From contig JAEEYV010000052.1 in NCBI GenBank assembly GCA_016288295.1, positions 8,626 through 72,625 of the forward strand: DNA of 64,000 nt. Reading direction: 5' to 3'. Below, piece by piece: positions 3,480 through 53,558 of this stretch (positions are counted from its first letter, which is position 1; each line of letters begins with the position of its first letter). Made by a program: the position numbers and the translations under genes. Under the pieces are notes generated by a model. That model made no database searches. It was not told the origin of the DNA and saw only the letters and a program-made list of their open reading frames with translations. The stretch comes from Alphaproteobacteria bacterium (GTDB lineage: Bacteria; Pseudomonadota; Alphaproteobacteria; RF32; CAG-239).

Positions 3480-4133
3480 CTAATATTTTCGAATAATTCC
3501 GTTCAAAATTCCTTGAATTTTTACTTGTGAAGGGTGAAGTTTGCGAATTTCATAGTCTTTATTGCAAGGTTTGAGCCAGATTTCGTTCTCTTTTTTCTGC
3601 CAGATTTTAAGAGTCGCTTCACTATTATCAACCAAAGCCACAACTATCTGCCCGTTTTCGGCCACATCAGCTCTTTTGATAATTGCCAAATCTCCATCCA
3701 TAATTCCGGCTTCAATCATCGATTCGCCTTCGATTCGCAAAGCATAAAAATCGCCTCTTGTAACCAAATCAAAAGGCACTGAAACCGTTTCATTTTCATA
3801 AGCAATGGCCTCAATTGGCGTTCCGGCAGCAATTTTGCCATACAATGGAATTTGGGCTGATGAATTTTGTAGAGCCAATTTTATCTTTTTTTCTTCTTCA
3901 ATTATATCACGGGGCTTAAAACGAGGGATTTTCAAAACTTCTAATGCCCGCGCTTTATGTGGAAGTTTACGAATAAATTCACGCTCGACCAATTCTTCAA
4001 TCAAGGCATGAATACCTGATTTAGATTTAATTCCGACAGCACCTTTCATCTCTTCAAATGAGGGGCAGCATCCGGTTTCTTTAATTGTATTGTCAATAAA
4101 CATCAAGAGTTTATATTGCTTTGGTGTCAACAT
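3480..4133 (-). CDS. lexA: LexA repressor (S24 peptidase)
   Basis: 217 aa. It has an N-terminal winged helix (LTPKQYKLLMFIDNTIKETGCCPSFEEM) and a C-terminal S24 domain (RIEGESMIEAGIMDGDLAII, VVALVDNSEATLK). Confidence 0.95.
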   Translation of the reverse strand: MLTPKQYKLLMFIDNTIKETGCCPSFEEMKGAVGIKSKSGIHALIEELVEREFIRKLPHKARALEVLKIPRFKPRDIIEEEKKIKLALQNSSAQIPLYGKIAAGTPIEAIAYENETVSVPFDLVTRGDFYALRIEGESMIEAGIMDGDLAIIKRADVAENGQIVVALVDNSEATLKIWQKKENEIWLKPCNKDYEIRKLHPSQVKIQGILNGIIRKY

Positions 4134-4161
4134 GGCATTTTCTCCTTTAATCTATACAAAT

Positions 4162-4176
4162 GTTCTACTTTAGTTC
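4162..4176. promoter_or_regulatory. Alphaproteobacterial-type SOS box (GTTC-N7-GTTC)
   Basis: GTTCTACTTTAGTTC lies 29 nt upstream of the lexA start, in the lexA/lysS divergent spacer. Confidence 0.7.
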
Positions 4177-4278
4177 TTTTTGAACGTCAAGCGTTATTTT
4201 CGGTTGCAAGTTTTTAGATACTTGTATATATTAATCCGCAGTTTTATTGATAATTTTAGCAGAATAGGAACTACAATC

Positions 4279-5748
4279 ATGGCAAATGAAACCAATATTC
4301 ATAGAGAATCAAGACTTGCAAAGCTCAATGCTCTGCAGGAAAAAGGTTACAATCCTTATCCTTATTGCTTTAAACCCAATGCTTTTGCCGATGATTTACA
4401 AAAAAAATATGCGGACCTTGCCGCCGGTGTTGATACCGAGGATCGCGTTACAGTTGCCGGTCGTGCCATGGCTGTCCGCAACAGCGGTATGTTTATTGAC
4501 CTAAAAGACATTAGTGGCAAAATCCAAATTTTCTGCCATAAATCTCATCTTGATGAGACTGGTCTTGAACTCTTAAAAAGCCTTGATGTTGGTGATTTGG
4601 TCGGTGTCAGCGGTTTGGTTCGTCGCACCCCGCGCGGTGAGCTTTCGATTGCTGCCGAAAAATTTGATATTATCGGCAAATCCCTCCAACCCCTACCTGA
4701 AAAGTTTCATGGTCTGACTGATGTTGAAGCCCGTTATCGTCAACGTTATGTTGATTTTATCATGAACGATGACAGCCGTGAAATCTTCAAAAAACGTTGC
4801 CAAATTACCTCTGCAGTTCGCCACTATTTTGAGCAGCATAAATTTATGGAAGTTGAAACTCCGATGCTTCAAACCATTATGGGCGGTGCCAATGCCAAAC
4901 CATTTATTACCCACCATAATACGTTAGATATGGATTTGTACCTTCGTATTGCGCCGGAATTATTCCTCAAGCGTTTAGTAGTTGGAGGTTTTGATCGCGT
5001 GTTTGAAATCGGTCGCAACTTCCGCAATGAAGGCATTGATAAAAAACATAATCCTGAATTTACAGCATTGGAAGCTTATCAGGCTTACGCCGATTATAAT
5101 GATATGGCAGAGCTTATTCCTGACTTATTGCGCTTTGTCTGCAAAGAAGTCAACGGCACCGAAGTTATTACTGTCAATGGTACAGAAATTGATTTATCCA
5201 AGCCGTTTAAGCGTAAATCAATTGTTGAACTTGTTAACGAATATGCCGGTATTGACCTTATGAAAGCCGAAACAGTTGAAGCCGCCCGCGATATGGCCAA
5301 ATCTATAGGTGTTGATGCTTCTGATTGCAGCAATTGGGGCAAGGTTGTACAATTAGTATTTGATGAAAAAGTCGAACCCCACCTTATTCAGCCGATTTTG
5401 GTTATGGATATGCCTCGTGATGTATCGCCTTTGGCCAAAGTTCACCGTTCTAATCCGCGTTTGGTTGAGCACTTTGATGCTTATGTCGGCGGCATGGAAA
5501 TTGGTTGTGCTTATTCCGAGCTATCCAACCCGTTAGATCAAAAAGCACGTTTTGATGCCCAGTGTGCCGAACGCGAAGCCGGCGATGATGAAGCCCAAAT
5601 GCTTGATGAAGATTATGTCGTAGCTCTTGAAAATGCTCTTCCTCCGACCGGCGGTATGGGTATGGGTATTGATCGTCTAGCTATTTTGCTAACTGGTGCT
5701 GAAACCATTCGTGATGTAATAGCTTTTCCAACTCTGCGCAACAAGTAG
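4279..5748 (+). CDS. lysS: lysyl-tRNA synthetase, class II
   Basis: Start moved to ATG 4279 ([29 protein letters not shown]). Class II motifs are present ([25 protein letters not shown]). Confidence 0.95.
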
Positions 5749-8287: not shown

Positions 8288-8875
8288 TCAGAGATCATCT
8301 GCAGGCTCTATCTTGTGCTGCCTGTTGAATATTCGTTCAAACTCTTTGGCACCTTCCTCATCAGGCACAACCACGGTCATGGCTAACGGGGGAGCCTCCT
8401 TGCTCTGAAGCTTCAGTAAAACCGCTACCAGACATTTAGCCGATTCGGCATGAGATAAGCAACCATATTTATCACTGGTAGCGAGTGCCGGCACAACAAC
8501 ATCCTTGATTTTCTGTGCATTTGCACAGACAACAATGTTTGCCCATGCGCGCCTCACCAAAGACTCGCGTTCCTTCAGAGGCAATTCTTTATCAACGCCA
8601 AGGATCGTCGAGTTAATAATCCTTTTGCCATAAATAGTCTTGCTGACGCAGGCGTGTCCATAGGGGAGCTCTCCGCCGTTTTGGTCAAGTTCATCTTCGT
8701 AATCAAGAACCCCTTCGGCAAAAGGAGAATGTCGCAAATAGCTTGTTTGCTCGACAGCCTCGAATCGGTCAGAAAACCGTTCTGCAACAAAAGCGGACGC
8801 ATCAAACTTTAATAAGTTGTTACCCACAGCAATGGTTACTTCGTAACCACCTAAGTAATAAGTTACAGTACGCAT
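8288..8875 (-). CDS. hypothetical protein (195 aa)
   Basis: The ORF was trimmed to ATG 8875 (MRTVTYY) because the upstream codons overlap a TTGACA-17-TATATT promoter. VVVPALATSDKYGCLSHAESA is faintly macro-domain-like but this is unverified. Confidence 0.55.
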   Translation of the reverse strand: MRTVTYYLGGYEVTIAVGNNLLKFDASAFVAERFSDRFEAVEQTSYLRHSPFAEGVLDYEDELDQNGGELPYGHACVSKTIYGKRIINSTILGVDKELPLKERESLVRRAWANIVVCANAQKIKDVVVPALATSDKYGCLSHAESAKCLVAVLLKLQSKEAPPLAMTVVVPDEEGAKEFERIFNRQHKIEPADDL

Positions 8876-9099
8876 AATAATAAAGTTTAAAAATTTAAGA
8901 ACTGTCCCGAATATATCATCGTTCCTTTCATGTGTCAACATTTTTGTCAACAAAGGGTAATATTTTGCAATTTTTTGATTTTTTTTTACGATTTTTGTTG
9001 TTTTTTAGACGAAAACGTGTTACAATGCACATAACAAATGGAAAATATTGCAAAAATACAATAGACTAGTTAAGATTAAGACAATTGAGGGAGGTAGTT

Positions 9100-9984
9100 A
9101 TGACAACAAAAAAAACAGCAATAAAGAAAGCACGCATCTTGCATAAGATTCTTGATGGAAAAAAAGTGGCTGGACGTACAATGAGAAATGGATTGATTAA
9201 AATATTTGCTGTTGCCACCATAGCTACATCAATTGCTCCGGCTGCCAATGCTCAAAGTCGTGGAAATTCCAATCAAGGAAAAAGATATGAGTATGTGCAA
9301 CAACCGGATGGTTCTTTTCAAATGGTAGAAGTTACCAATAACCGTCAAGCTACAACCCAACAAAGCTACAGCAAAGCCTCATCCGGACAACAATCTGTCT
9401 ATGATATTTATAATAGTCTTCCTTCCTATACACGTGCCTTAATTCAAGAAAGAGGATATCAAATTTTGCCTGAATTTCAAGGGGGAAGAACCACCGGTCT
9501 TAATCGCCCTCAATCCGGTGTTGTCTATGCTTGTGCTGTACAAGATCCGTCTAACATAGATAATGTGCTCTTTCTACCGATATCCCAAGCTATTTATCCA
9601 GCCGGCAACAGAGATTTTGTAAATCTTCGTGTCCTCAGATCTTCAAAAGAGAATGCTTATAACATGATGGATCTCGGTTCAGGTCCATATGAAGCAAGAG
9701 TAGAATATGCCCAAACTCGTGAGAATGCTCAAAGAGAAAGATATAATGAACAGAGATCCAGACAGGATGATATTTATATGGATCAGAGAGATGTAAGACA
9801 AGACCGAGAGGAAACACATGTTAAAATCCAAAAAGATACTGGGTACGGCAAAGCTAATGGAGTTATGGATGGGATTGATGACGTAGATAGAACGATCAAT
9901 AGAGGAGTTCGAACAGTTGAGAATGGTGTAAATACTGTTAAAAGAAGCGTAAAAACTGTCAAACGTATATTTGGTCGTGATTAA
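9100..9984 (+). CDS. hypothetical secreted protein
   Basis: ATG 9100 is preceded by GAGGGAGG. The signal peptide ends APAANA|Q. The C-terminus carries short (R/K)xV(K/R)TV repeats. Confidence 0.65.
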   Translation: MTTKKTAIKKARILHKILDGKKVAGRTMRNGLIKIFAVATIATSIAPAANAQSRGNSNQGKRYEYVQQPDGSFQMVEVTNNRQATTQQSYSKASSGQQSVYDIYNSLPSYTRALIQERGYQILPEFQGGRTTGLNRPQSGVVYACAVQDPSNIDNVLFLPISQAIYPAGNRDFVNLRVLRSSKENAYNMMDLGSGPYEARVEYAQTRENAQRERYNEQRSRQDDIYMDQRDVRQDREETHVKIQKDTGYGKANGVMDGIDDVDRTINRGVRTVENGVNTVKRSVKTVKRIFGRD

Positions 9985-10152
9985 TACAGCCATATTTCAA
10001 ACCCTCAAAATACCGGCTTAAATACAGCCGGTATTTTTAGTTATGTCTCATTTATATTTTTGTCGAACCAAAACAAAATACTTGCAAATTTGTTTATATT
10101 GTGCTAACTTCCCCACCAATTAACATTATTAACCAATTATTCGTTTTGTTTT

Positions 10153-10464
10153 ATGAAAGTAAGATTATATCGAGTAGCACCGCCAACGATTCACATAATC
10201 AATGGACAAGCGGTGACAGTAGTAACCTTTGTCGCAAAAGAAGACAGGCATAATGCCAAACCACAGCAATTTTATGTCGTCTCCAGCCCAAACAATCTTC
10301 AGACGAATCGAGCATTTTCACACCTTTTGTTTGCAGAGTCTAATGATGAACTCGAAATAAGGACGAGTATATCTACCAGTGATTTAGGAGGTACTTCTTT
10401 GCCGGGATTTGGTGTTAGAGTTTTTGAGGTCGAGAACATCTCCTCTCCCGTCTACAATACCTAA
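10153..10464 (+). CDS. hypothetical small protein (paralog A)
   Basis: 103-aa ORF. It shares VT(V/M)VT..........(K/R)P..FY..V and (H/Y)LL.A segments with the next ORF. Confidence 0.45.
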   Translation: MKVRLYRVAPPTIHIINGQAVTVVTFVAKEDRHNAKPQQFYVVSSPNNLQTNRAFSHLLFAESNDELEIRTSISTSDLGGTSLPGFGVRVFEVENISSPVYNT

Positions 10465-10500
10465 CCGGTAGGTTTTACACCATCTAGCTTGTTAGTTTTT

Positions 10501-10779
10501 ATGGAACTCAAAAATGTCTACGTAACCGACCAGGCACAGACAATTAATCTACCGGTTGGCGAGAAAACAGTTACTATGGTGACCATCATGCTTCAACCAG
10601 AAGGTGATAAAAGGCCTAGGCCATTCTACGCCATTGTTGAACAATATGAACCGGAAAGAAAGCAGCCAGCTGTTTACTTGCTTCATGCGTTACGTGGTCA
10701 TCGTCTCAATTTTAAGGTTGACGAAGAGAATCCGTATCCCATGTTTGGTGATAAAATAGCTGATTTTCTGGATGAATAA
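10501..10779 (+). CDS. hypothetical small protein (paralog B)
   Basis: 92 aa from ATG 10501. Distant similarity to the preceding ORF. Confidence 0.45.
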   Translation: MELKNVYVTDQAQTINLPVGEKTVTMVTIMLQPEGDKRPRPFYAIVEQYEPERKQPAVYLLHALRGHRLNFKVDEENPYPMFGDKIADFLDE

Positions 10780-10816
10780 AGTCCATATCCGCCTCTTGCC
10801 GACTGCTACAAGTTTC

Positions 10817-10851
10817 AAAATCCCCGTTCTGCTTCTGCAGGCGGGGATTTT
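10817..10851 (+). terminator. Intrinsic terminator
   Basis: aaaatccccg...cggggatttt stem followed by a T-rich run. Confidence 0.7.
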
Positions 10852-11004
10852 GATTTATATTTTTTTTACTAACGAATCGTTTTTTTGCCCTCAATTAACC
10901 CTTTATTAGCTTATTTATACTATATTTAAACAAAATGGTTGCATTTTTAGACAAATTGTGTTATAAAATAACCATAAGCAATTTTTTTATGAAAGGAACG
11001 AGAT

Positions 11005-11349
11005 ATGACAGATCAAAAACAAGAAGAACGTCCATTAACCCCTAAAGAAAAAGCTAAAATTAATGATGTTATGAATCAGTCTGATGCTAAAGCCTGGTAT
11101 GGTGATAACAATAAGCGTATGGAGTTATTAAGGGAACGTGTTGAAGCAGAAGTCCGCAGTCTTACCGACGAACAACAAAAACGTGCAAACAATAATCAGC
11201 CCCCTCTAACTGCAACACAGCAGGAAATCGTCGTTACTAAATATGGTACTCCAAAATCCAAATTGCGGATTGAAAGCGAAGATGCTCTGGCTAAAGATGA
11301 ATTTAAAACATATCAGGATTCTGAGCGTAGTAATAGAGATAGAGCATAG
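11005..11349 (+). CDS. hypothetical protein (114 aa, charged)
   Basis: ORF with an AAAGGA RBS, its own promoter and its own terminator. Confidence 0.55.
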   Translation: MTDQKQEERPLTPKEKAKINDVMNQSDAKAWYGDNNKRMELLRERVEAEVRSLTDEQQKRANNNQPPLTATQQEIVVTKYGTPKSKLRIESEDALAKDEFKTYQDSERSNRDRA

Positions 11350-11374
11350 CCGTAAAACGTATATACTATATCAA

Positions 11375-11399
11375 AGAGGTCTTCGGACCTCTTTTTTTA
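11375..11399 (+). terminator. Intrinsic terminator
   Basis: agaggtc-ttcg-gacctct followed by T7. Confidence 0.8.
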
Positions 11400-11490
11400 T
11401 ACAATAATATTTTTTTGACAAAATGCTTGATTTTTCTCAAAAAAGGAATTATATTGCCCCAATAAAACATTATTTATAAATCATTGTAAT

Positions 11491-11919
11491 ATGAAAGACA
11501 GAATTTTAACTTTAATCTGCACAGCAATATTGGCAGTGTTCGGTGCTAACGTGGCATACTACTGCGTGTGCGATGTAGGCCTTGTGCCGGTTTGTATCTG
11601 TGTTGCTATCGTGGTGGCACTTGAGAGTGTTTATTCCGTAAAAAATGTGGAATTTTCGTGGATTGGATTAACATTTCATTTATGCGCGTTTTTGTGTTTT
11701 TTCTACATCGCATATAGCAATGGAACATTATTCCAAGACGTTGCCTACAGACCTCAAGGACCGGATCTTGCTGCAGGACTTTATCACAAACCTGCCGATT
11801 TCGGATGCGGTGTTTCACCGGCCTGGCAGTGGTGGCTATTCGTAGGGTTGATTTGCTTGCGAATATTCATTATTCAGCCAGTAATTTTATTCTGTGGACG
11901 CCGAAAAACAGAAAACTAA
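11491..11919 (+). CDS. hypothetical integral membrane protein
   Basis: 142 aa with about 4 hydrophobic helices. Confidence 0.5.
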   Translation: MKDRILTLICTAILAVFGANVAYYCVCDVGLVPVCICVAIVVALESVYSVKNVEFSWIGLTFHLCAFLCFFYIAYSNGTLFQDVAYRPQGPDLAAGLYHKPADFGCGVSPAWQWWLFVGLICLRIFIIQPVILFCGRRKTEN

Positions 11920-12304
11920 CAACAAGCCCTGTCTCCTCCTAAAGGAGCAGGGCTTAAAAATTACTTCATCCTTGTGAGTTAAGTCAATCAATTCGATCGA
12001 ATCAATCATTCCTCATTTTTGCTAGAAAACGTCCAGAGATTTTCAAATTTTAAAGGATATCGATATTTATAATCCAGAAGTATGTAATGACAATATGGGA
12101 TATATAATTATGGAAAGTTACGATATGTCTAGCCTTGGCCAATCATGCCAAACTAACGACAATACAAACACTATTACGATGCCCACAACTAAACAAATTT
12201 TTCATGAAAATAAGAAAAACGCCCTCCATTTGACATTTTTTTAAAAAAGAATTATGTAAAATCAATCTATTATTTAAAAAAATACAATATTTGTTATTTT
12301 TTTC

Positions 12305-12333
12305 TTGACATCTTGTTTTGATTTTGTTAAACC
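12305..12333 (+). promoter_or_regulatory. Sigma-70-like promoter of the GC-rich RNA unit
   Basis: TTGACA-17 nt-TAAACC. It is preceded by the same 14-mer, TTTTTTTCTTGACA, found at the tRNA-cluster promoter. Confidence 0.5.
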
Positions 12334-12339
12334 TCTCCC

Positions 12340-12769
12340 TACAAATTAATTATGCAGAAATTATTCACAATTATATAGCGAGAGCGCCAACACTTTCACC
12401 GAATATGGTGCCCCCGCACTTGAGAATCTCATAGCGCAAACTACGAGCCGGACCAACATCACCCGCTCAACATGGACAGGATCATGGGATAACCACGCCA
12501 TCTCCGCCGACACTAGCCGCGAAATGGATCATCGAGCCACCCACGTTTTCTTCCCGACGATTGACGACCACCAACGGACGCCGCTGCCTCATCGCAGACA
12601 CCGCCGCCCACTACGTCGAGAGAGCAAGCAGGTAGCAATAGAGGTACCAGTGTTTCACTTCAACACATCCAGGTGCCACCCAGGTAACATTCTGCAAACC
12701 GCTATGATATTCCAGCAGAGCCCCTCGTCACGCAATGTGACAGGGGCTCTGTGTTTTATATATTTTTTT
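12340..12769 (+). ncRNA. Candidate roughly 400-nt GC-rich, C-skewed non-coding RNA of unknown class
   Basis: It has its own promoter (12305-12333) and an intrinsic terminator (hairpin 12717-12750 plus T-run). The core at about 12380-12720 is far more GC-rich than the surrounding DNA. There is no credible ORF. Confidence 0.35.
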
Positions 12770-12770
12770 C

Positions 12771-12799
12771 TTGACAACATCATTTTTTAGTGTTTTACT
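12771..12799 (+). promoter_or_regulatory. Promoter of the tRNA cluster
   Basis: TTGACA-17 nt-TTTACT with the upstream T7C tract. Confidence 0.5.
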
Positions 12800-12885
12800 C
12801 ACCCCCACTAAAAAATAATTAAGAAATTATTCCATAAGACATATAAATATAAAGGTATTTTGATGTTAAAACAACGCAAACACGT

Positions 12886-12957
12886 GGAGAAATAGTTAAG
12901 TGGTCTAGAACGCACGCCATCTGGCGTAAGACCTGGGTTCGAATCCCGGTTTCTCTA
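12886..12957 (+). tRNA. tRNA-like gene with no canonical anticodon loop
   Basis: Acceptor GGAGAAA/TTTCTCT, D arm GTT-AAGTGGTCTAG-AAC and T arm CTGGG-TTCGAAT-CCCGG are intact. The anticodon arm is ACGCC-ATCT-GGCGT (4-nt loop, or a 6-nt loop CATCTG if one base pair opens). Confidence 0.5.
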
Positions 12958-12963
12958 CAAAAC

Positions 12964-13037
12964 GGATCACTAGCTCAATTGGTTAGAGCACTGCACTACG
13001 GATGCAGAGGTTTACAGTTCGAGTCTGTAGTGATTCA
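12964..13037 (+). tRNA. tRNA-Arg (anticodon ACG)
   Basis: Hand-folded cloverleaf: GGATCAC/GTGATTC acceptor, CTGCA-CTACGGA-TGCAG anticodon arm, TTCGAGT T-loop. No encoded CCA. Confidence 0.9.
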
Positions 13038-13045
13038 CAAAAAAA

Positions 13046-13115
13046 GATTGTGTAGCTCAGTGGTAGAGCAACGGATTCAAATCCGTGGTCCTCGGTTCAA
13101 ATCCGAGCACGATCT
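13046..13115 (+). tRNA. tRNA-like gene, class I body with a 6-nt anticodon loop (TTCAAA; CAA-like)
   Basis: GATTGTG/CACGATC acceptor with normal D and T arms. The anticodon arm ACGGA-TTCAAA-TCCGT has a perfect 5-bp stem but only 6 loop nucleotides. There is no long variable arm. Confidence 0.55.
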
Positions 13116-13121
13116 CAAGAC

Positions 13122-13194
13122 GAGGGTATAGCTCAGCAGGTAGAGCAGCGGATTCTTAATCTGTGTGTCCTCGGTTCGAGTCCGAGTACCCTCA
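13122..13194 (+). tRNA. tRNA-Lys (anticodon CTT)
   Basis: GAGGGTA/TACCCTC acceptor, GCGGA-TTCTTAA-TCTGT anticodon arm, TTCGAGT T-loop. Confidence 0.85.
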
Positions 13195-13196
13195 CA

Positions 13197-13271
13197 ACGT
13201 GTATAGCTCAGTTGGTTCAGAGCGCTGGAATATAGATCCAGAGGTCCCCAGTTCGAGTCTGGGTGCGCGTT
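13197..13271 (+). tRNA. Atypical class-I tRNA with anticodon ATA (formally Tyr)
   Basis: ACGTGTA/TGCGCGT acceptor (A1-U72) and CTGGA-ATATAGA-TCCAG anticodon arm (A32, U33, AUA, G37). The variable region is short, unlike bacterial tRNA-Tyr. Confidence 0.55.
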
Positions 13272-13351
13272 CTCAGATTTTGCGTTGAATTTTTAACATC
13301 TAGGATCAAGCGCCTATTTCACCTATGGCCCTCATCCGATACCATTCCCCC

Positions 13352-13383
13352 AGACCTCCTCGTGCCCAGAAGCCGGGAGGTCT
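13352..13383 (+). terminator. Probable terminator of the tRNA cluster
   Basis: agacctcc...ggaggtct stem followed by cttattt (weak U-tract). Confidence 0.4.
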
Positions 13384-13550
13384 CTTATTTGAGATAATTA
13401 ACCTTCTATACTATAACAAAACCTACAGTGTCGTGAGACACATTGTTTCCAAAGCCTCCCAAGCATCAAAGGACGCCTTGGAAACCAATAGTTAGAAAAT
13501 TTGACGTGCAGGCTCTCCACCAAGGAGTGCCTGTTTTTTTATTCGTTTTG

Positions 13551-13579
13551 TTGACATTTTTCCAGATTCGTACTAATAT
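13551..13579 (+). promoter_or_regulatory. Sigma-70-like promoter of the 13619 ORF
   Basis: TTGACA-17 nt-TAATAT. Confidence 0.5.
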
Positions 13580-13618
13580 TCTTATATGTTAATTTACACA
13601 GCCTAACGGGGGTATAAA

Positions 13619-14590
13619 ATGGGTACAGAATCTACACAATTTGAAGATGATAAACTCTGGATGCAAGACATAACAAAGGACAATCGTCGCACAATTAGCG
13701 TTGAAAATAAAGAAAAGGGCGATATGAAAATTCAATCGCTGACCATTAGTACTAAAGAAGAATATGTTGAATCGCATTATGAACCCGCCAAATATTCTTT
13801 TGACCATCCGGAACAAAATAAAGGTACAACTGCTAAAACTCGCATGACACGAGTAACTGTTTCGCTTTCAGAGACCGCTCCTAATGGTGAGTCTCGAAGC
13901 GATGCCAGAATATCTTTTCTCAAACCTGCTTCCCAAAATCCAGATGCTCCTATAGGCATAGAGCGAGATTTGGAAAATTTAGATGGTCTTATGGAAGTTT
14001 ATAAGGAAGTTGCAAAATCAAAACCGACAGTAGAAGGCTATAAAATCCAAAGTTTTTTAGATAAATATGTTTTTAATACAGATAATGGACGCTATGCACT
14101 GAATCAATATCTTTCCGAAAATCCCAGAACAGAAAAACCTGCAAAATATACAAATAATGTCAAGCTGATTCATAAAAAAGGTGAGCTTGTCGGTGCCGAA
14201 GTTATTGCTAAGGAATATTCCGGCGACAGACTTAAAGACAGCCCTGATGGTAGAGAATTTAGGGTCAGATTTAATGTTAAAAAAGATTCCAATGGCAATG
14301 ATGTTTTAGGAGTTGATATTGGAATTGCAAAACATGTCGGACCATTTAAGAGATATCTCTCTTTATGTAGTAAAGAAGCGGCAATGCAACATTCTAAATT
14401 GAAATCATTTTTTGACGACCCCAAGGCTATTCAGAAATTAATTACAGCAAAAGCCATTTCTTCAACAAACATAAATAGATTCAATATGCCGGACATTTTA
14501 GAAAATGCTCGTCAGGCAGCATTTGATGAGCTTAATAATAGAGAAGTTGCATTAATGCGTAGTATGCGAAATAAAAGAGCCAATGGATAA
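13619..14590 (+). CDS. hypothetical protein (323 aa)
   Basis: ORF with a GGGGG RBS, its own promoter and its own terminator. No family recognised. Confidence 0.6.
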   Translation: MGTESTQFEDDKLWMQDITKDNRRTISVENKEKGDMKIQSLTISTKEEYVESHYEPAKYSFDHPEQNKGTTAKTRMTRVTVSLSETAPNGESRSDARISFLKPASQNPDAPIGIERDLENLDGLMEVYKEVAKSKPTVEGYKIQSFLDKYVFNTDNGRYALNQYLSENPRTEKPAKYTNNVKLIHKKGELVGAEVIAKEYSGDRLKDSPDGREFRVRFNVKKDSNGNDVLGVDIGIAKHVGPFKRYLSLCSKEAAMQHSKLKSFFDDPKAIQKLITAKAISSTNINRFNMPDILENARQAAFDELNNREVALMRSMRNKRANG

Positions 14591-14609
14591 TTGATTTTAT
14601 TTTCAAATA

Positions 14610-14634
14610 ACTCATCCTTCGGGGTGAGTTTTTT
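14610..14634 (+). terminator. Intrinsic terminator
   Basis: actcatcc-ttcg-ggggtgagt followed by T5. Confidence 0.8.
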
Positions 14635-14658
14635 GATGTCCGCTTTCTAAAAAAAACA

Positions 14659-14687
14659 TTGACATATTTGGACAAATGTGTTACAAA
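14659..14687 (+). promoter_or_regulatory. Sigma-70-like promoter of the 14727 ORF, with a conserved spacer motif
   Basis: TTGACA-17 nt-TACAAA. The spacer contains TTGGACAAATGTGT. Confidence 0.5.
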
Positions 14688-14726
14688 CTACCCAATTCAC
14701 TATACTATTAATATTAATTATTCAAT

Positions 14727-15164
14727 ATGGAAAACCAAAGAAAAATCAAGGAACTTGCTGCCAAGTTCAAAGCTCTTCTTGCCAAAGGCGAGAACGTTAC
14801 TACCCCATGGGGTTATTGCTGCAAAGAGTGTCATGACTACACATCGATGTTTGCAAGGCTGCTCGCTTCACCGGAGTGTATTGCGGATCTGAAGATTAAG
14901 CACGATCCCCAGACAAACATAGTAACATTCCTTGGCACCGAGGAAATGTCGCAAGATGCCAAGCAAGGCAACCTTGACATGCTGGGCATCATTGCTTGCG
15001 GTTTACCGGAAGAAGTTCTTCCTCTTTATGCGAGAACTATCGCTAAGGATGCTGTCGGTGATATGCCTGGTGCGACCAGATCACAAAAAGCGCGCGAGCG
15101 CTACAAGGTGCGCCAGTACATCACTAAAATCTATCAGATGTATCAAAGAGCTCTCGCCGCATAA
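14727..15164 (+). CDS. hypothetical protein (145 aa)
   Basis: ORF bracketed by a promoter and a terminator. Confidence 0.55.
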   Translation: MENQRKIKELAAKFKALLAKGENVTTPWGYCCKECHDYTSMFARLLASPECIADLKIKHDPQTNIVTFLGTEEMSQDAKQGNLDMLGIIACGLPEEVLPLYARTIAKDAVGDMPGATRSQKARERYKVRQYITKIYQMYQRALAA

Positions 15165-15181
15165 ACCCGACACAGACAACA

Positions 15182-15217
15182 ACAAAGCCTCAAACTCACC
15201 AGAGTTTGGGGCTTTGT
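15182..15217. terminator. Bidirectional terminator hairpin
   Basis: acaaagcctcaaactc-acca-gagtttggggctttgt lies between convergent ORFs. Confidence 0.7.
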
Positions 15218-15219
15218 TG

Positions 15220-15975
15220 TTATTCAAATTGATGTCCTTTATATATAACTTTTGTTACGTAAAACTGCCTGCAATGTCCGGCTCCCGGCATACCGCCATA
15301 AAGTTGTTTGGTGTGAACTTCACCTTTTTGGGTTGCTGTCTCAATATGAAACCACGAAAACTTTCCGGTTCCGCGCCAGTCCATCAAATATCCCTCAAAC
15401 TCAGCAATATCTCCCTTTTTTAAAAGTGCAATTGCTCTCCTTACGGCCCGTGTTGCCGGAATAACGTGATTGTTATTAATTTCATCTCTGTTTATAATCG
15501 GGGCATCTGCGTACATATATTTGTAGTTCAACGCTCGTTCTTCATGGTCGAATTGAATTTTTTTCAAATTATTTTCATCAGAGGTTTTTCCGTGGACAAT
15601 CGAAACATCAACTGCTGCCACAGCATTGTAGAGTTTTGTTCCCTCTTTTCCGGCGGAATGATACCACGTATTAATTATCCCATCGTTCCAGTCCACCCAG
15701 ACCACACGTCCGCGCACTTTGTAATGCACACGCAGACGATACAATATGTCATAACCGCTGATGTTTACCGCCTGCCATGCTTGGTTGCCTAAATCTTCAA
15801 AACTCTCATTTAGGGGAGCATCTTTTTCAGCAACTTTTTGCCCCCAAATCAAATTGTATGTAACTGGTTTAAGCCAATGCCAACCGACAATAGCCACTGC
15901 CACAGCCAAATATATAGTTTGTTTTCTGGTTAAAGATATTTTCAAAGTTCTTATCTCTTCAATCTGTTCCACCAT
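15220..15975 (-). CDS. hypothetical membrane-anchored protein (251 aa)
   Basis: ORF with an N-terminal TM helix (IYLAVAVAIVGWHWL). It overlaps the upstream ORF by about 25 nt. Confidence 0.6.
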   Translation of the reverse strand: MVEQIEEIRTLKISLTRKQTIYLAVAVAIVGWHWLKPVTYNLIWGQKVAEKDAPLNESFEDLGNQAWQAVNISGYDILYRLRVHYKVRGRVVWVDWNDGIINTWYHSAGKEGTKLYNAVAAVDVSIVHGKTSDENNLKKIQFDHEERALNYKYMYADAPIINRDEINNNHVIPATRAVRRAIALLKKGDIAEFEGYLMDWRGTGKFSWFHIETATQKGEVHTKQLYGGMPGAGHCRQFYVTKVIYKGHQFE

Positions 15976-16487
15976 TCTTTAAACAGAGTTGCATAACTGT
16001 CTTTTTTAGCAACTTCAACCACATTGTTTTCGCAAGTCATATTCAAATTTTTTATAAAATCATTCAGTTCACTGATACTTTGCGGAGTATTAAAAACATT
16101 GTTGCTCATAAAATCTAAAAGTGCGGTACGTTTGGAATTATCCGCAGGAAGACAATGATTTTCGATTTTATATTTCAAATACATCAGCCCTTCGGCTCCC
16201 CGCATCCGATTATTAAAATCGAACCACTTATCAATCGCAAGCTTAACTTGAGTTGTTTCAGCATTTTTATAATTGATTAAAGTAACTTTAATATCGGTAC
16301 TGTCGCTATTTCCAGTTTTGCTTTTTGAAGCAATGGGCAGAACGTTAATTTCGCCTAAAGAATTACCTGGAATTTTATTCCTAAATCTGTAAGAAACCGC
16401 TCCCAACTTTTTTTTATCATGAGCATTGGACGTAGCCAGGCAGTTTATATTGCAAGTTCCACTTTCAAAATGCTCTAAACTGGTCAT
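15951..16487 (-). CDS. hypothetical protein (178 aa)
   Basis: Start moved to ATG 16487 (MTSLEHF), which is preceded by AGGAGGAG. Confidence 0.6.
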   Translation of the reverse strand: MTSLEHFESGTCNINCLATSNAHDKKKLGAVSYRFRNKIPGNSLGEINVLPIASKSKTGNSDSTDIKVTLINYKNAETTQVKLAIDKWFDFNNRMRGAEGLMYLKYKIENHCLPADNSKRTALLDFMSNNVFNTPQSISELNDFIKNLNMTCENNVVEVAKKDSYATLFKEWWNRLKR

Positions 16488-16833
16488 GTTTTCTCCTCCT
16501 AACAAACAGCACTAATATAATACAATTTATAATTTAAGAAAAGCTTAAAAATAACACAAAAGCAAAAACAACGCCACCACGTCATTTTTGCTTTTGTAAT
16601 TTTTCAGGTTATGCCGCTTATTACTTCGAGAATTTGGTTGTAAGTCGGAGCAGGGCGCCTACAACGTATGGGATTAGGCATGGGAGCAAAATTGATGTCC
16701 TTAAAAACTCGCCGCTCACCTCCATTTCTTACCTGTGGCAAAAGCATCAAATAGGCTTCAACTTTTTTTATTATAATCAAAGCATAAAAAAGACAGCCCA
16801 ACACGGGGATGCCTTTTGCTTGAGAATTTAAAA

Positions 16834-17580
16834 TTAGATACTTCTTATTTTACCATCTCTACCTACTCTATTAACGGGAATTCCTTTAGCTCGTTGCCCG
16901 CTAGTATCATTTCTAAGTCTATTCAACTCTTCTCGTGAGGGACCGTTGGTTGCTTGTGGTCTCCTTCTGGTAGAAGTTCTAGCTGTAGTTCGTTTGCGTT
17001 TGTCAAAAGTTCCTTTAGGTACTATTTCAATGCCGGGTTTTATGCTCTTTGAAGCAATAATATCGTTTCCCCATGCTTTTTTCATTTCTTGTATTGATTG
17101 TTTTAATTTGTCCGCATAGCCGCGATATCCGGTTGAATCAGTAAAAAGTCTAGGATTTTTATCCATTTCATCAAATATATATTGTGCATTACGCATGCTA
17201 TTATGAGCAGTTATATGGCATTTTTCTCGCATAAATTGAATACTGCTTTGTTCATCTAAATTATTTAATATGCGTTGTAAAGCATATTCGCAATCTTCTT
17301 GGTTTTTTCCTGGGATTTGCTTAAATGAATCAAAAATAACCATAACTTGTTGCCCACGCCTTCTGCAATCGGCTACCATGGCAATCAATCCCTCCCAACC
17401 GATATCGGGTTTGTTCTTATCACTAAAACATTTTTGATTATGCGTATCTTTGAACTTTTTGCCGGAAAATTTATCCCTAAACCAACCGACAAATTTTTCT
17501 TTTATTCCTTTTCTATCATAATCCAAACGATATCTCAGAAATAAAGGTTTTGCATTTTTTTGAAAATCTTCTAAATCCAT
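16834..17580 (-). CDS. hypothetical protein (248 aa, basic C-terminal tail)
   Basis: ORF with no recognised family. Confidence 0.55.
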   Translation of the reverse strand: MDLEDFQKNAKPLFLRYRLDYDRKGIKEKFVGWFRDKFSGKKFKDTHNQKCFSDKNKPDIGWEGLIAMVADCRRRGQQVMVIFDSFKQIPGKNQEDCEYALQRILNNLDEQSSIQFMREKCHITAHNSMRNAQYIFDEMDKNPRLFTDSTGYRGYADKLKQSIQEMKKAWGNDIIASKSIKPGIEIVPKGTFDKRKRTTARTSTRRRPQATNGPSREELNRLRNDTSGQRAKGIPVNRVGRDGKIRSI

Positions 17581-17645
17581 TTCTTTTCTCCCTCAACTAT
17601 CTTATTTTCTATATTATCATAATTTGTAGATTACATCAACAAAAT

Positions 17646-18335
17646 CTAAGGGCGTTCTTCACGCTTATATCCCATCCGCTCTTCGTCCTTGTAGGTAAAA
17701 TCAAAATATCTTTCATCAAAATTATTTACTTTACTCCGGCGACGATTATCTGATTTAATTTTTCTCAAGGCTTGGTTGTGCGCAAAATCATGGCTTCCCC
17801 CTTTTGTTCCGGTAACACCACCGGCCATAAAGGTTGTATCAACATAAATTTTTTTACCTCGATAATTAAAATAGTTCCAAGCATGACCAAAATTAGCTCG
17901 TTTTTGCCGATTCGTCAGATGTACTTTTTTCGGATAAGCATAGCCATGAACTTCTTCGGCCTGAATACCGGCTTTTTTGCACATTTCATTGAAGAGTTCA
18001 GCAAAATCTCCACAAATACCGACACGTGATTTCAATAGTTGTTGTGGCGTTTGTCCGTGGTATTTTCTGATTAACTTGCTGGTTTTGCCGTTGCTATAAA
18101 GATATTCGTCGTAATTAATATGACTCGCAATCCAAAATGCAATCATTTTTGCCTTGTCATAGTCATCATCAAGTGGTTTGACCAAATGCCTGGTCAAAAC
18201 GCTGACATCATTTTCAACTTTACGCGGCGTGTTCATCGCATAACGTTTAATCCGTTCTGACGAATAATTGGTTGCTTGAGCATAATTTATGCCTGCCAGC
18301 CAAAAAACAAATAAGAAATACCAAAGACGTTTCAT
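17646..18335 (-). CDS. secreted transglutaminase-like cysteine protease superfamily protein
   Basis: Signal peptide present. The Cys-His-Asp context is GICGDFAELF ... GHAWNYF ... YVDTT. Confidence 0.7.
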   Translation of the reverse strand: MKRLWYFLFVFWLAGINYAQATNYSSERIKRYAMNTPRKVENDVSVLTRHLVKPLDDDYDKAKMIAFWIASHINYDEYLYSNGKTSKLIRKYHGQTPQQLLKSRVGICGDFAELFNEMCKKAGIQAEEVHGYAYPKKVHLTNRQKRANFGHAWNYFNYRGKKIYVDTTFMAGGVTGTKGGSHDFAHNQALRKIKSDNRRRSKVNNFDERYFDFTYKDEERMGYKREERP

Positions 18336-18457: not shown

Positions 18458-18543
18458 TGGTAGGGGTAGTCAGACTCGAACTGACACGGGCTGAGCCCAC
18501 AAGATTTTGAGTCTAGCGCGTCTACCAATTCCGCCATACCCCC
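18458..18543 (-). tRNA. tRNA-Leu (anticodon CAA), canonical class II with encoded CCA
   Basis: The reverse complement is GGGGGTATGGCGGAATTGGTAGACGCGCTAGACTCAAAATCTTGTGGGCTCAGCCCGTGTCAGTTCGAGTCTGACTACCCCTACCA, which has a long variable arm. A terminator hairpin lies at 18428-18450. Confidence 0.9.
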
Positions 18544-35270: not shown

Positions 35271-36140
35271 ATGTTACTACATTTACTACTTAATACTTTG
35301 ATCGTTGGAGCCGGATACGGCTTAACGGCTATGGCGTTTCGCTTGATGTATTCTGTCTCACCGTTTTTTAATATGACATTAGGTGCTGTTGCTGCGCTAG
35401 GTGCTTATACTGCTTATGGATTAATCTCTTTGTGCGGATTGCCTATGTGGGTTGGGGTTATCGGCGCAATAGCCGCCTGTGCTTTGTTTTCATACTTTTT
35501 GGAGGCCGGAATTTATACGCCGATGCGTAATCATGGTGCATCATCAATGGTATTGATGGTAGCATCATTAGGCGTTTATACAATATTTGAGTCAATAATT
35601 TTACTGGTTTTTGGTCCGCAATACCAAAATTTGGGTTCTATTCAATCAGCAACAACCGTCAATTTAGGTTTCGCAAGTATTCCTTTGGTTCAAGCTTTAA
35701 CAATTGTTGCTTATTTTGTTTGTTTTGGCTTCTTAAACTACTTATTGCACCATACATTTATTGGTCTAAAAATCCGTGCCGTTCACGATAGTGCCTCTCT
35801 GGCCAACACAATCGGGATGAAAAACAACCAAATTATTTTATTGGTATCGGTTTTAACCGGAGTGGTGCTGGGTGTCAACGGGGTTTTAATCGGTTATGAT
35901 ACTGGTATGGTGCCTACAATGGGATTTAATCTGTTGTTCAAAGGTATGATTGGTGCGATCATCGGTGGATTAGCCAATATGCGTGGTGCATTCTTTGGGG
36001 CGCTGTTCCTGGCATTTGCAGAAAATGTCGGTGTGCTGATTTTTGCATCAGAATGGCGTGATTTGATAGCCTTTGTTATCTTTATTACATTTTTATCTTT
36101 ACGTCCGAAAGGGATTTTTCAAAAAAAGGAGATTAATTAA
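35271..36140 (+). CDS. livH: branched-chain amino acid-type ABC transporter permease
   Basis: 289-aa polytopic protein with a LivH-like N-terminus (LNTLIVGAGYGLTAMAFRLMY). Its stop overlaps the next ATG (TAATG). Confidence 0.85.
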   Translation: MLLHLLLNTLIVGAGYGLTAMAFRLMYSVSPFFNMTLGAVAALGAYTAYGLISLCGLPMWVGVIGAIAACALFSYFLEAGIYTPMRNHGASSMVLMVASLGVYTIFESIILLVFGPQYQNLGSIQSATTVNLGFASIPLVQALTIVAYFVCFGFLNYLLHHTFIGLKIRAVHDSASLANTIGMKNNQIILLVSVLTGVVLGVNGVLIGYDTGMVPTMGFNLLFKGMIGAIIGGLANMRGAFFGALFLAFAENVGVLIFASEWRDLIAFVIFITFLSLRPKGIFQKKEIN

Positions 36141-37231
36141 TGAAAAAACTGATTTTAGGTTTATGTGCTGTACTTGCATTATCAGCTTGTAAGGATGAAA
36201 AAAAGAACGTTGTGCAAGCAGACACCAGACCTGTGATAAAAGTGGGTGCAAGCCTTCCGTTGACAGGTAATATGTCAGATATTGGTATTTCTGCACAAAG
36301 ATCTCTACAACTAGCGCTGGATGAATGGAATCAAAGAGATACAAAAAATAAATATGAGCTTATTGTAGAAGATGATGGCTTTGATGCCAAAAAAGTAGCA
36401 ATGATTACGCATAAATTGGTTAATCAGGACAAAGTAAAAGCTGTTTTTACTGTTTTTTCAATAGGAGCTAATGTTGTTAGCCCGATTACTCAACAGGATA
36501 AAATTATTCATATGACTTGCGCATACGGTTCACAACCGGCAGAAGGGTTTTACAATTTTAACAATATTACACAGTACGAAAATCAAACAGAATTAATGCT
36601 TAAAGAACTTAAAAAAAGAGGTATTAAGTCAATAGGAATGTTGATTTCTAATAATATTGGTTCGACACAGCAAGCAGAAATTTTGGAAAACAAAATTAAG
36701 CAAGATGGAACAATAAAAATTATCGGAAAAGAAATTTTTAATCCTGGAACAATAGATTTTAGGATGATTATTCAAAAAATAGTTGCCAATGGTGAGCCGG
36801 ATATTTTTTATGTTGATGGTATTACTCCTGATGCCACTCTTGTTTCTAAGTATTTGAAAGAAGTCACGGGAAAAATAAATTTGACAACGATTAATGATTT
36901 TATTGAAACGCCAAAAAGAGAAAGTTTTGAAGGATTATGGTTTGTTGAATCTGCATCAGGAACAGATGAGTTTAATAATAAGTTTGAAAATAAGTATGGA
37001 GAACCGGTCTTTTTGTGCGGTGCCAATACTTATGATAATTTAGATTTATTTATAGAAGCATGTGAAAAATCAGAACATTGCGATAGTGACGAGGTTGTAA
37101 ACAACTTGCTTTCTGTTAACAATAGGAATGGAGCCATTGGAAAATTTTCTATTGATGATCAGGGGATAGTGCAATCCGAAGCTAGCGTTAAAAAAATTGA
37201 AAACGGTAAAGCTATCAAAGTAGAGGAGTAA
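36140..37231 (+). CDS. Liv-type (PBP type 1) substrate-binding lipoprotein, paralog 1 of 14
   Basis: MKKLILGLCAVLALSAC lipobox, followed by RPVIKVGASLPLTGNMSDIG. Confidence 0.85.
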   Translation: MKKLILGLCAVLALSACKDEKKNVVQADTRPVIKVGASLPLTGNMSDIGISAQRSLQLALDEWNQRDTKNKYELIVEDDGFDAKKVAMITHKLVNQDKVKAVFTVFSIGANVVSPITQQDKIIHMTCAYGSQPAEGFYNFNNITQYENQTELMLKELKKRGIKSIGMLISNNIGSTQQAEILENKIKQDGTIKIIGKEIFNPGTIDFRMIIQKIVANGEPDIFYVDGITPDATLVSKYLKEVTGKINLTTINDFIETPKRESFEGLWFVESASGTDEFNNKFENKYGEPVFLCGANTYDNLDLFIEACEKSEHCDSDEVVNNLLSVNNRNGAIGKFSIDDQGIVQSEASVKKIENGKAIKVEE

Positions 37232-37235
37232 AAGT

Positions 37236-38342: not shown

Positions 38343-38346
38343 AAGC

Positions 38347-39447: not shown

Positions 39448-39477
39448 AATTAAATGTTCAATAAAGGAAAATAAAAT

Positions 39478-40200: not shown

Positions 40201-40245
40201 AACATAATCTATTATTAAAGCAAATATAATATGGAGAACTAATCT

Positions 40246-41112: not shown

Positions 41113-41114
41113 CT

Positions 41115-41933: not shown

Positions 41934-41948
41934 ACGAAAGGAAAAACA

Positions 41949-43037: not shown

Positions 43038-43061
43038 TCTAGATAATAGGGGGATTAAGTA

Positions 43062-44153: not shown

Positions 44154-44157
44154 AAAC

Positions 44158-45243: not shown

Positions 45244-45247
45244 AAAT

Positions 45248-46321: not shown

Positions 46322-46341
46322 AACAAAAAGGGAGTAATAAT

Positions 46342-47433: not shown

Positions 47434-47436
47434 GAC

Positions 47437-48534: not shown

Positions 48535-48538
48535 AAAT

Positions 48539-49618: not shown

Positions 49619-49622
49619 TAAT

Positions 49623-50702: not shown

Positions 50703-50706
50703 TAAT

Positions 50707-51801: not shown

Positions 51802-51805
51802 ATAA

Positions 51806-52828: not shown

Positions 52829-52830
52829 TA

Positions 52831-53529: not shown

Positions 53530-53558
53530 AATAGTTGAACTCAATGAAAGGTATTCAG

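Follow-up and report, generated by a model that had tools for sequence, protein, structure and literature searches.

Non-proteinogenic transfer RNAs (tRNAs) with relaxed anticodon use exist in bacteria, and the tRNA cluster of phage T4 includes small stable RNAs. RNase P and RNase Z require only the acceptor/T/D body of a tRNA, and the leader-trailer helices of ribosomal RNA (rRNA) operons are cut by RNase III. In Bacillus cereus, the pseudo-tRNA tRNAOther has a regulatory, non-translational role (PMC3399842), and mascRNA is a eukaryotic tRNA-like small RNA (PMC8128908). In phage and mobile clusters, tRNA variants with anticodon-loop changes evade tRNA-targeting defences (PMC10264068, PMC11555353), and long tRNA arrays are defined by a minimum of 20 tRNA genes and a minimum density of two per kb (PMC4758250). 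Here we describe a cluster of five tRNA-type genes (g1 to g5) in a 64,000-nt stretch of contig JAEEYV010000052.1 from an Alphaproteobacteria bacterium; the whole stretch is called the window below, coordinates are positions in it, and all five genes lie on its + strand. Our preferred reading, plausible though held at somewhat less than an even chance, is that the cluster is an accessory operon of partly non-decoding tRNA mimics that would be recognised via the tRNA body.

The cluster resembles ordinary bacterial tRNA operons in its cloverleaves with stems of 7/4/5/5 base pairs (bp), its elbow nucleotides, short spacers and own promoter and terminator, and two of its members have canonical anticodon loops. 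It differs from them in its 4- and 6-nt loops, in an AUA anticodon on a class-I body and in a tRNA-Arg with U20, as well as in the absence of encoded CCA ends, in strain-variable gene content and in a helix formed by leader and trailer (the stalk) that encloses the array. The flanks of mature rRNAs likewise pair into a long enclosing helix, whereas the stalk here surrounds tRNA-shaped modules. The stable RNAs of T4 and mascRNA are also tRNA-sized and tRNA-shaped, freed by the tRNA processing machinery and non-decoding, but they come from unrelated organisms and contexts, with no sign of shared ancestry.

Phage and mobile tRNA clusters are similarly compact, fast-evolving accessory sets with variation concentrated in the anticodon loop, and the Arg, Lys, Tyr-like and Ile-like isotypes found here are typical nuclease targets. 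The present locus, however, lies on the chromosome and shows neither phage genes nor viral matches, and its loop shortening would abolish decoding, which goes beyond decoding-preserving substitutions. A further comparison is with tRNAOther, a tRNA-like gene of an accessory region that stands outside translation and is apparently biologically active. Of this likeness, the nucleotides show only the structural inability of g1 and g3 to decode, and no relationship in sequence is expected; tRNAOther is a single island-flanking gene and not a multi-gene operon with tetraloops, a stalk and allelic diversity. Long tRNA arrays (PMC4758250, PMC8421152) share an accessory and horizontally mobile character, aberrant members and operon expression, but hold 20 to more than 40 genes for most amino acids against two to five mostly non-canonical ones here; the three alleles described below carry 5, 4 and 2 genes, far from the size that defines such arrays. 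Overall, the cluster would work most like accessory tRNA sets or pseudo-tRNAs outside normal decoding.

Gene calls and structure of the cluster

ARAGORN places five tRNA-type genes at 12886-13272 on the + strand, and each was also recovered with the Rfam model RF00005 and in a segment-by-segment parse of the cloverleaf (ARAGORN's own call in brackets):

12886..12957, + strand: g1, tRNA-shaped, anticodon helix capped by the tetraloop ATCT (12886-12958, tRNA-???, 2-base 'anticodon' tc)
12964..13037, + strand: g2, tRNA-Arg(ACG)-type, canonical 7-nt loop CTACGGA (12964-13038, Arg-ACG)
13046..13115, + strand: g3, tRNA-shaped, 6-nt loop TTCAAA (13046-13116, tRNA-???, 2-base 'anticodon' ca)
13122..13194, + strand: g4, tRNA-Lys(CTT)-type, canonical loop TTCTTAA, A73 (13122-13195, Lys-CTT)
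13197..13271, + strand: g5, tRNA-shaped, 7-nt loop ATATAGA, anticodon AUA (13197-13272, 'Tyr'-ATA)

RF00005 scores g1 to g5 at 48.5, 62.3, 62.2, 65.9 and 59.2 bits (gathering score, 29 bits; E-values 3e-7 to 4e-12), five matches that lie far beyond chance. The spacers between the genes measure 6, 8, 6 and 2 nt. The tight five-gene tRNA cluster described in a first-pass annotation made from the letters alone is thus upheld by two programs, including the covariance model that it had proposed as a check, and the class-II tRNA-Leu(CAA) that it had placed at 18458-18543 is present. Among the Rfam tRNA-like families only RF00005 passes (YrlA reaches 18-24 bits against a threshold of 69), and ARAGORN found no transfer-messenger RNA in the window.

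All five genes contain U8, A14, the D-loop GG, TTC and A58, with at most two mismatches in the 21-22 stem positions of each gene, and the acceptor, D and T stems of the canonical elongator cloverleaf (7/4/5/5 bp) occur together with the elbow nucleotides in g1 to g5. A 5-bp anticodon stem with a 7-nt loop, U33 and a purine at position 37 is found in g2, g4 and g5 and not in g1 and g3. The anticodon arm of g1, ACGCC-ATCT-GGCGT, has 5 bp and an outer C.A, and its tetraloop, as first read, leaves no way to present an anticodon; the first pair of the gene is G1.U72 and the discriminator is A73. In g3, a perfect 5-bp stem encloses six nucleotides (ACGGA-TTCAAA-TCCGT), again as first read and in a single assembly, and such a loop cannot present a normal anticodon. 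This gene has U73 and a variable region of 4 nt, and its minimum free energy structure is the cloverleaf (z=-3.5).

The remaining members were judged by identity-element rules taken from model organisms. A20 is the strongest determinant for ArgRS in bacterial tRNA-Arg (PMC9976931), and both g2 and its orthologue h2 have U20 in its place. In g4 the identity elements (CUU, A73) fit the anticodon. The loop ATATAGA of g5 gives the anticodon AUA on a class-I body with A1-U72, U73 and a variable region of 5 nt; with neither the long variable arm nor the G34 of bacterial tRNA-Tyr, it is at odds with that tRNA, as had been noted from the sequence, and fits no bacterial identity set. Thus, g2 and g5 carry identity elements that disagree with their anticodons. 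The description of g2 and g4 as ordinary was overstated, as g2 lacks A20, g4 is missing from the sister allele and neither encodes CCA.

Related alleles

The operon occurs at the same place in two related alleles from cow-rumen metagenomes (PRJEB23561 and PRJEB21624), called here the L003 and L009 types. They were reached via the 323-aa protein encoded downstream (ORF323; ORF, open reading frame), for which a set of 5.8 billion proteins holds only two further clusters at 90% identity. The sequence of the L003 type, with four genes, is identical in four assemblies, and that of the L009 type, with two genes, in three:

h1 (L003): 70-nt gene with the tetraloop ATAT, found by Rfam and missed by ARAGORN
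h2 (L003): Arg-ACG
h3 (L003): called 'Glu-TTC', loop ATTTCAG, body non-Glu
h5 (L003): identical to g5
k1 (L009): Ile-GAT-like, loop TTGATCA, 6-bp anticodon stem, C37
k2 (L009): tetraloop AAAT

Each allele therefore has one tetraloop member: g1 (ATCT), h1 (ATAT) and k2 (AAAT). Since the h and k alleles are identical across three to four assemblies each, their tetraloops are not sequencing errors.

In the window, a 1-nt indel error may affect the g3 loop, and it alone among the cluster genes. On this explanation the true sequence of TTCAAA would be TTCAAAA or TTTCAAA. In its favour, short homopolymers flank the loop, seven nucleotides are present in that of the orthologue h3, and the window allele over 11968-13195 was found in no second assembly by look-ups of flanking proteins (ORF88 was not on record). 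We nevertheless consider it very unlikely, as frameshifts are absent from the window's large ORFs and the tetraloops reproduced in other alleles show that short loops are real at this locus; g3 would also be unusual with a repaired loop, given its 4-nt variable region.

The tRNA body is preserved, the anticodon loop is not

The orthologous pairs reveal how the genes have diverged. Between g2 and h2 there are nine transitions. Six of them fall in three pairs that change on both sides: two stem pairs, G29-C41 to A-U and A50-U64 to G-C, and the tertiary pair of the elbow, which goes from G19-C56 to A19-U56. Random placement reproduces this pattern in 0.06% of trials (P=0.0006), and the canonical Arg-ACG loop is identical in both genes. 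Between g3 and h3, with the loop and variable region excluded, 15 substitutions keep 21 of 21 pairs, three of them compensated and none disrupted (P=0.0004 in a neutral simulation with the observed transition/transversion mix). The pair g1 and h1 (P=0.04) shows one compensated pair and a paired deletion of the outer C.A. Across ten distinct sequences, 97.5% of the acceptor, D and T cells are paired, 47 are doubly changed, and 0 of 500 shuffles score as high.

The anticodon loops behave differently. Their length is 4, 6 or 7 nt among the alleles, and orthologues differ in sequence, with TTCAAA in g3 against ATTTCAG in h3 and ATCT in g1 against ATAT in h1; the 6-nt loop is accordingly not conserved among orthologues, one of the outcomes that the first-pass annotation had asked about. 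The stems that carry the tetraloops of g1, h1 and k2 differ at nearly every pair and are still paired, and the loop TTGATCA of k1 rides on a similar stem of 6 bp. Because compensatory changes are joined by a tetraloop that recurs in three alleles, the comparison puts the pattern at odds with neutral decay. Selection appears to act on the L-shaped body and the closed anticodon helix, not on the anticodon loop. The earlier argument that intact bodies with altered loops speak against random decay is in this way strengthened (g3/h3, g2/h2 and the recurring tetraloop), and the compensatory changes it had proposed to look for in related clusters are there.

We therefore regard it as unlikely that the cluster is a decaying remnant of an acquired phage or mobile-element tRNA cluster in which the odd members are recent pseudogenes. 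Such a remnant would be in keeping with genes that lack CCA, unlike the host tRNAs, with spacers as short as those of phage clusters, with gene content that varies among alleles, with broken anticodon loops, with the loss of A20 in g2 and with two U.U mismatches in h1, and the surrounding 10 kb of orphan genes are absent beside lysA in family-level relatives. It is contradicted by orthologue substitutions that are compensatory far beyond the neutral expectation and by a tetraloop in three alleles with fully covarying stems; the substitutions are not blind to pairing and the aberrations are shared, contrary to what pseudogenes would show. Promoter, leader-trailer stalk and terminator are maintained as well, the codon usage of the region is host-like, and searches for phage matches, PHROG hits, an integrase or an att repeat came back empty.

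The same variability of the loops bears on decoding. The odd members might be unusual decoders, either by doublet or frameshift reading with the 6-nt loop or as an A34/I34 tRNA reading UAU/UAC/UAA; all bodies are intact, and the 7-nt loop of g5, with U33 and a purine at position 37, is formally canonical. This seems extremely unlikely, since a tetraloop cannot present an anticodon, the g3/h3 loop is conserved neither in sequence nor in length, and g5 fits no identity set. Moreover, translation table 11 reads every large ORF in the window normally and without interruption, and neighbouring genes show no excess codon demand. Codon supplementation was rejected as a role for the cluster on the same grounds: relative to core genes, the orphan genes around it use fewer CGT/CGC/CGA codons and the same share of AAG, and so have no excess demand for either.

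Encoded CCA is absent from all ten cluster genes of the three alleles, as opposed to three of three canonical tRNA genes of the clade that have it, namely the tRNA-Leu(CAA) and tRNA-Glu(TTC) of the window and the tRNA-Leu(CAG) of a relative. Following the discriminator, every internal cluster gene continues with CA, mostly CAA (12957-13196 in the window, 7336-7498 in L003, 2218-2223 in L009), and the last gene of each allele with CTCAG. These nucleotides may direct 3' processing or represent a degenerate CCA.

Promoter, stalk and terminator

The cluster lies between a promoter-like element and a terminator-like hairpin, both read from the sequence:

12771..12799, + strand: promoter-like element, conserved in L003 and L009
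12807..12885, + strand: leader of ~79 nt, with a palindrome and the 5' stalk strand
13272..13351, + strand: trailer, whose 5' part is the 3' stalk strand
13352..13390, + strand: terminator-like hairpin, AGACCTCC...GGGAGGTCT, then CTTATTT

The promoter combines a perfect -35 TTGACA (12771-12776), a 17-nt spacer, a TG (12791-12792) and a weak -10 TTTACT (12794-12799). Of the strong promoter of its own that had been ascribed to the cluster, the promoter itself stands, being conserved in all alleles; its strength by consensus does not, given the weak -10. A paralogous copy of promoter and leader precedes unit A, a non-coding transcription unit described below. The leader, whose 5' end is a predicted transcription start, includes the palindrome AATAATT-AAGA-AATTATT at 12814-12831 and a 31-nt block identical in all three alleles. 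The three alleles share the promoter, the leader and the first part of the trailer, and a hairpin is retained at the terminator position in L003 and L009 with different sequences. In Rfam's E-value mode, leader and trailer match no family; ROOL and GOLLD, suspected from the rumen origin and the tRNA neighbourhood, are absent from the matches and were dropped.

Leader and trailer can pair into a stalk of ~19 bp that encloses the tRNA array. The 5' strand lies at 12862-12880 of the leader (GATGTTAAAA + CAACGCAAA, also written GAUGUUAAAA, CAACGCAAA) and the 3' strand at 13279-13287 (TTTGCGTTG) and 13291-13300 (TTTTAACATC) of the trailer, written UUUGCGUUG, a 3-nt bulge and UUUUAACAUC. RNAduplex gives energies of -25.7 kcal/mol for the window and -26.8 and -23.7 kcal/mol for the other two alleles, and shuffled trailers pair as well as the real ones in 1/500 (window), 0/500 and 30/500 cases. 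Stalk cells are paired at 96.5%, compared with 27-52% when the partner is slid, and include two compensatory pairs. An outer helix, whose covariation was read by eye, pairs GGTAT of the leader with ATACC of the trailer in the window, and GGTAC with GTACC in L003 and L009. A 10-codon ORF at 12868-12900 (ATG TTA AAA CAA CGC AAA CAC GTG GAG AAA TAG, with AAAGG upstream) overlaps both the stalk strand of the leader and the beginning of g1; its frame is lost in L009, and it is probably a chance occurrence.

The stalk raises an alternative in which the modules act as scaffolds for processing or stability, or as blocks of one stalk-closed RNA, and recruit RNase P and RNase Z or shape the transcript; activity would then reside in the conserved leader, in the trailer or in the entire assembly. 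Leader and trailer are indeed the most conserved parts (31 nt exact) and mutually paired, the module number varies, and since the acceptor/T/D body is all that RNase P and RNase Z require, the anticodon loop would be unconstrained, in line with what is seen. Even so, we find it quite unlikely. Stalk and promoter region by themselves explain the conservation of leader and trailer, the compensatory upkeep of anticodon stems would be needless for a pure cleavage signal, and g2 and h2 retain an identical canonical Arg-ACG loop.

Proposed model for the operon

On the preferred reading of the cluster as an accessory operon of tRNA mimics, one precursor would be transcribed from the conserved promoter, with its leader and trailer paired as stalk and outer helix around the array. 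Excision of the modules would fall to RNase P and a 3' endonuclease of the RNase Z type, with CCA added afterwards, a route suggested because the full acceptor/T/D elbow is kept and CCA is not encoded. The Arg-ACG and Lys-CUU members could still decode and might serve as replacement tRNAs. In contrast to these, g1 and g3 lack a normal anticodon and would be non-decoding mimics, because what selection appears to maintain is the L-shaped body, not the anticodon loop; g5, with AUA, matches no identity set. The short-loop members thus probably act as tRNA look-alikes and not as translation adaptors.

Intact acceptor and T arms together with relaxed anticodon use, reminiscent of the non-proteinogenic tRNAs mentioned above, would also suit dedicated substrates of an aminoacyl-tRNA-dependent transferase acting in cell wall, lipid or peptide natural product synthesis. 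The likelihood of this is slight in the extreme: no Fem, MprF, L-F-transferase, CDPS or LanB-type protein is encoded nearby, the neighbours being orphans without Pfam match, and charging would need an anticodon-independent identity (G3.U70 or a long variable arm), which none of the genes has. None of the specific roles initially listed (transferase substrate, decoy, regulator, recoding) is shown by the present analysis, and the neighbouring genes have no matching families.

A recombination mosaic in near-identical strains

The window and L003 essentially belong to one species. Their deacetylase, TPR-methyltransferase and GlgB proteins are 100% identical, the figure is 97.7% for LysA and 93-100% for four-fold degenerate sites, and the tRNA-Leu is the same. 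Genes that flank the locus show 98-100% identity, with ~100% at their four-fold sites. Across 11950-15000 (L003 6580-9350), however, 50-nt windows switch abruptly between 100% and 56-88% identity. Divergent blocks comprise unit A, the promoter, g1-g4, the later trailer and unit C, a small structured RNA between the operon and ORF323; the gene g4 has no counterpart in L003. Identical blocks comprise g5 with the first 30 nt of the trailer, and the N-terminal half of ORF323, whose C-terminal half (from ~14150) is again divergent, together with the start of ORF145. The unit C terminator of the window matches L009 and not L003, and the L008/L009 lineage shows 75-93% identity throughout. From these switches the locus is read as a recombination mosaic, or hot spot, within nearly identical strain backgrounds. 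The 100% identity of g5 was rejected as a sign of constraint, as the gene sits in a wholly identical recombination block.

The mosaic, with gene content that differs between near-identical strains, is the reason why we favour a role in conflict among the conceivable uses of the mimics, in which they would be decoys or spare targets in a conflict over tRNA-binding proteins, for example tRNA-targeting toxins or nucleases. The published tRNA variants that counter tRNA-targeting systems (PMC10264068, PMC11555353) are a precedent. The fuller version of this idea, a diversifying chromosomal tRNA-mimic cassette, closed by the stalk, that yields anticodon-less look-alikes beside variant Arg and Lys tRNAs as decoys and replacements against such toxins or nucleases, with alleles shuffled by recombination in a rumen population, is in our judgement rather improbable as it stands. 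ORF323 and the two flanking structured RNAs are possibly part of the same diversifying cassette.

In assembly GCA_016295295.1, scaffold L013 ends near window position 12040 and L001 starts at window position 13474, with flanks identical to the window. This suggests that coexisting alleles break assembly, which would account for a locus missing from collections of metagenome-assembled genomes (MAGs). Pattern scans of the GTDB representative genomes with the g3 arm and the conserved leader gave no match, so either both the source species and the locus are outside the collection or the locus fails to assemble in MAGs. The leader pattern also had no match in a metagenome scan, and a protein-guided metagenome scan yielded one short contig that stops before the cluster. 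On the L004 scaffold, lysS and lysA are fragmented (844-2326 and 3620-4822) but intact in L003 and the window, probably through indel errors in assembly; the tRNA cluster there is identical to that of L003 despite the split genes.

Several points weigh against the reading of the cluster as an operon of maintained mimics. Only three alleles are available, all of one narrow, uncultured lineage, and since gene content differs among them no member is indispensable. The U.U mismatches of h1 lie at the base of the acceptor stem, as in a decaying gene, and the 6-nt loop of g3, known from a single assembly, adjoins a run of three A. A consensus promoter scan did not list the element at 12771..12799, with its weak -10, and a simple terminator scan did not list the hairpin at 13352..13390. 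Expression and processing of the cluster RNAs are predicted, the case for decoys appears to come only from the hypervariability of the locus, and no neighbouring protein is tied to tRNA biology or defence.

Flanking transcription units and ORF323

Three further elements adjoin the operon:

12305..12757, + strand: unit A, GC-rich non-coding transcription unit of ~400 nt with its own terminator (z=-2.5)
13420..13545, + strand: unit C, small structured RNA of ~120 nt with its own terminator (z=-5.6; 0/200 shuffles as good)
13619..14590, + strand: ORF323, orphan 323-aa protein directly downstream

Unit A has ~55% G+C in a genome of 37%; it starts from a TTGACA promoter, is closed by the stem AUAGCG...CGCUAU and has a strong terminator. 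Identity to the L003 counterpart is 56-69%, several indels separate the two, and the L009 lineage lacks the unit; it matches no Rfam family, and an 88-aa ORF inside it is not conserved. Unit C lies between the operon terminator and the ORF323 promoter and is conserved in all three lineages. In L009, the most distant allele, its core retains 93% identity, and its terminator hairpin is replaced by a different one in L003. Like unit A, it matches no Rfam family. A hairpin loop of unit C carries CCUCCC, which resembles an anti-Shine-Dalgarno sequence, and the RNA may regulate the Shine-Dalgarno sequence (ACGGGGG) of ORF323.

ORF323 is known only with this locus, in three clusters among the 5.8 billion proteins, and its C-terminal half is hypervariable. 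It has no Pfam, PHROG or PADLOC match, and its AlphaFold2 model is poor (mean predicted local distance difference test, pLDDT, 55), with no Foldseek match in the PDB at E<=0.001. A faint resemblance to RNA-phage coat proteins was unusable. A type III toxin-antitoxin system of the ToxIN kind was also set aside, the modules being 57-78% identical and not repeats, and ORF323 having no PADLOC or Pfam match.

Genomic setting

The window is chromosomal, with ~37% G+C, and contains valS (partial), lexA, lysS, lysA, glgB/glgX/malQ and an FTHFS gene, among others. Its LysRS resembles the E. coli and the Geobacillus enzymes to the same degree. An orphan region of ~10 kb surrounds the cluster, between lysA (which ends at 8237) and the tRNA-Leu(CAA) gene. 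Its twelve ORFs, at 8288-18335, have no Pfam, PHROG or PADLOC match apart from a transglutaminase-core protein (17646-18335), a call based on the precomputed match of the L003 orthologue. Matches of neighbouring proteins to DALR_2, Cas9_a and BrxA were sub-threshold and taken as chance. Searches of Pfam, PHROG and PADLOC with the proteins that neighbour the cluster found no tRNA-using, phage or defence family. Among LysA homologues identity falls from 93% to 76% or less, and family-level relatives (71-76% LysA identity) have lysA followed by cdaA and housekeeping genes, with no tRNA cluster. The orphan region thus appears specific to a narrow lineage, because it is missing beside lysA in these relatives.

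Evidence of a phage was sought in several ways. PHROG gave no match for 10 neighbouring proteins, these include no integrase, and there is no att-type repeat of the tRNA-Leu(CAA), for which reason integration at that gene was rejected. No similar cluster occurs in 50,697 phage records, viral contigs scanned with g3, g5, the leader and unit C gave no match, and BLAST of the cluster against phage and plasmid records returned generic tRNA similarity only, with no match for g1. The locus does not, then, lie in a recognisable phage or prophage genome. The phage or island origin that the first-pass annotation had allowed for is favoured, weakly, by the absence of the orphan 8.3-18.4 kb from relatives, and opposed by the missing integrase, att repeat and viral matches and by the host-like codon usage of the orphan region.

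Elsewhere in the window, ~14 tandem ORFs of 340-376 aa at 36140-54635 adjoin a branched-chain amino-acid ABC permease gene (35271-36140). Two of them that were tested are substrate-binding proteins of the Peripla_BP_6 (LivJ-type) family. As a tandem array of paralogues it is unusually large.

Implications

Aberrant tRNA genes turn up routinely in the output of gene finders and are usually written off as pseudogenes. In this case, comparison of alleles points to bodies with 4- and 6-nt loops that are maintained by selection while the loop is free, at a locus that recombines among strains. The stalk around the tRNA array and the two unclassified structured RNAs would be new RNA elements of a rumen lineage about which little is known. 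If expressed, the cluster would provide a case from bacteria in which tRNA-shaped RNAs serve a purpose other than decoding, and it would offer a testable system for what the tRNA body alone can do, whether as decoy, sponge or processing platform.

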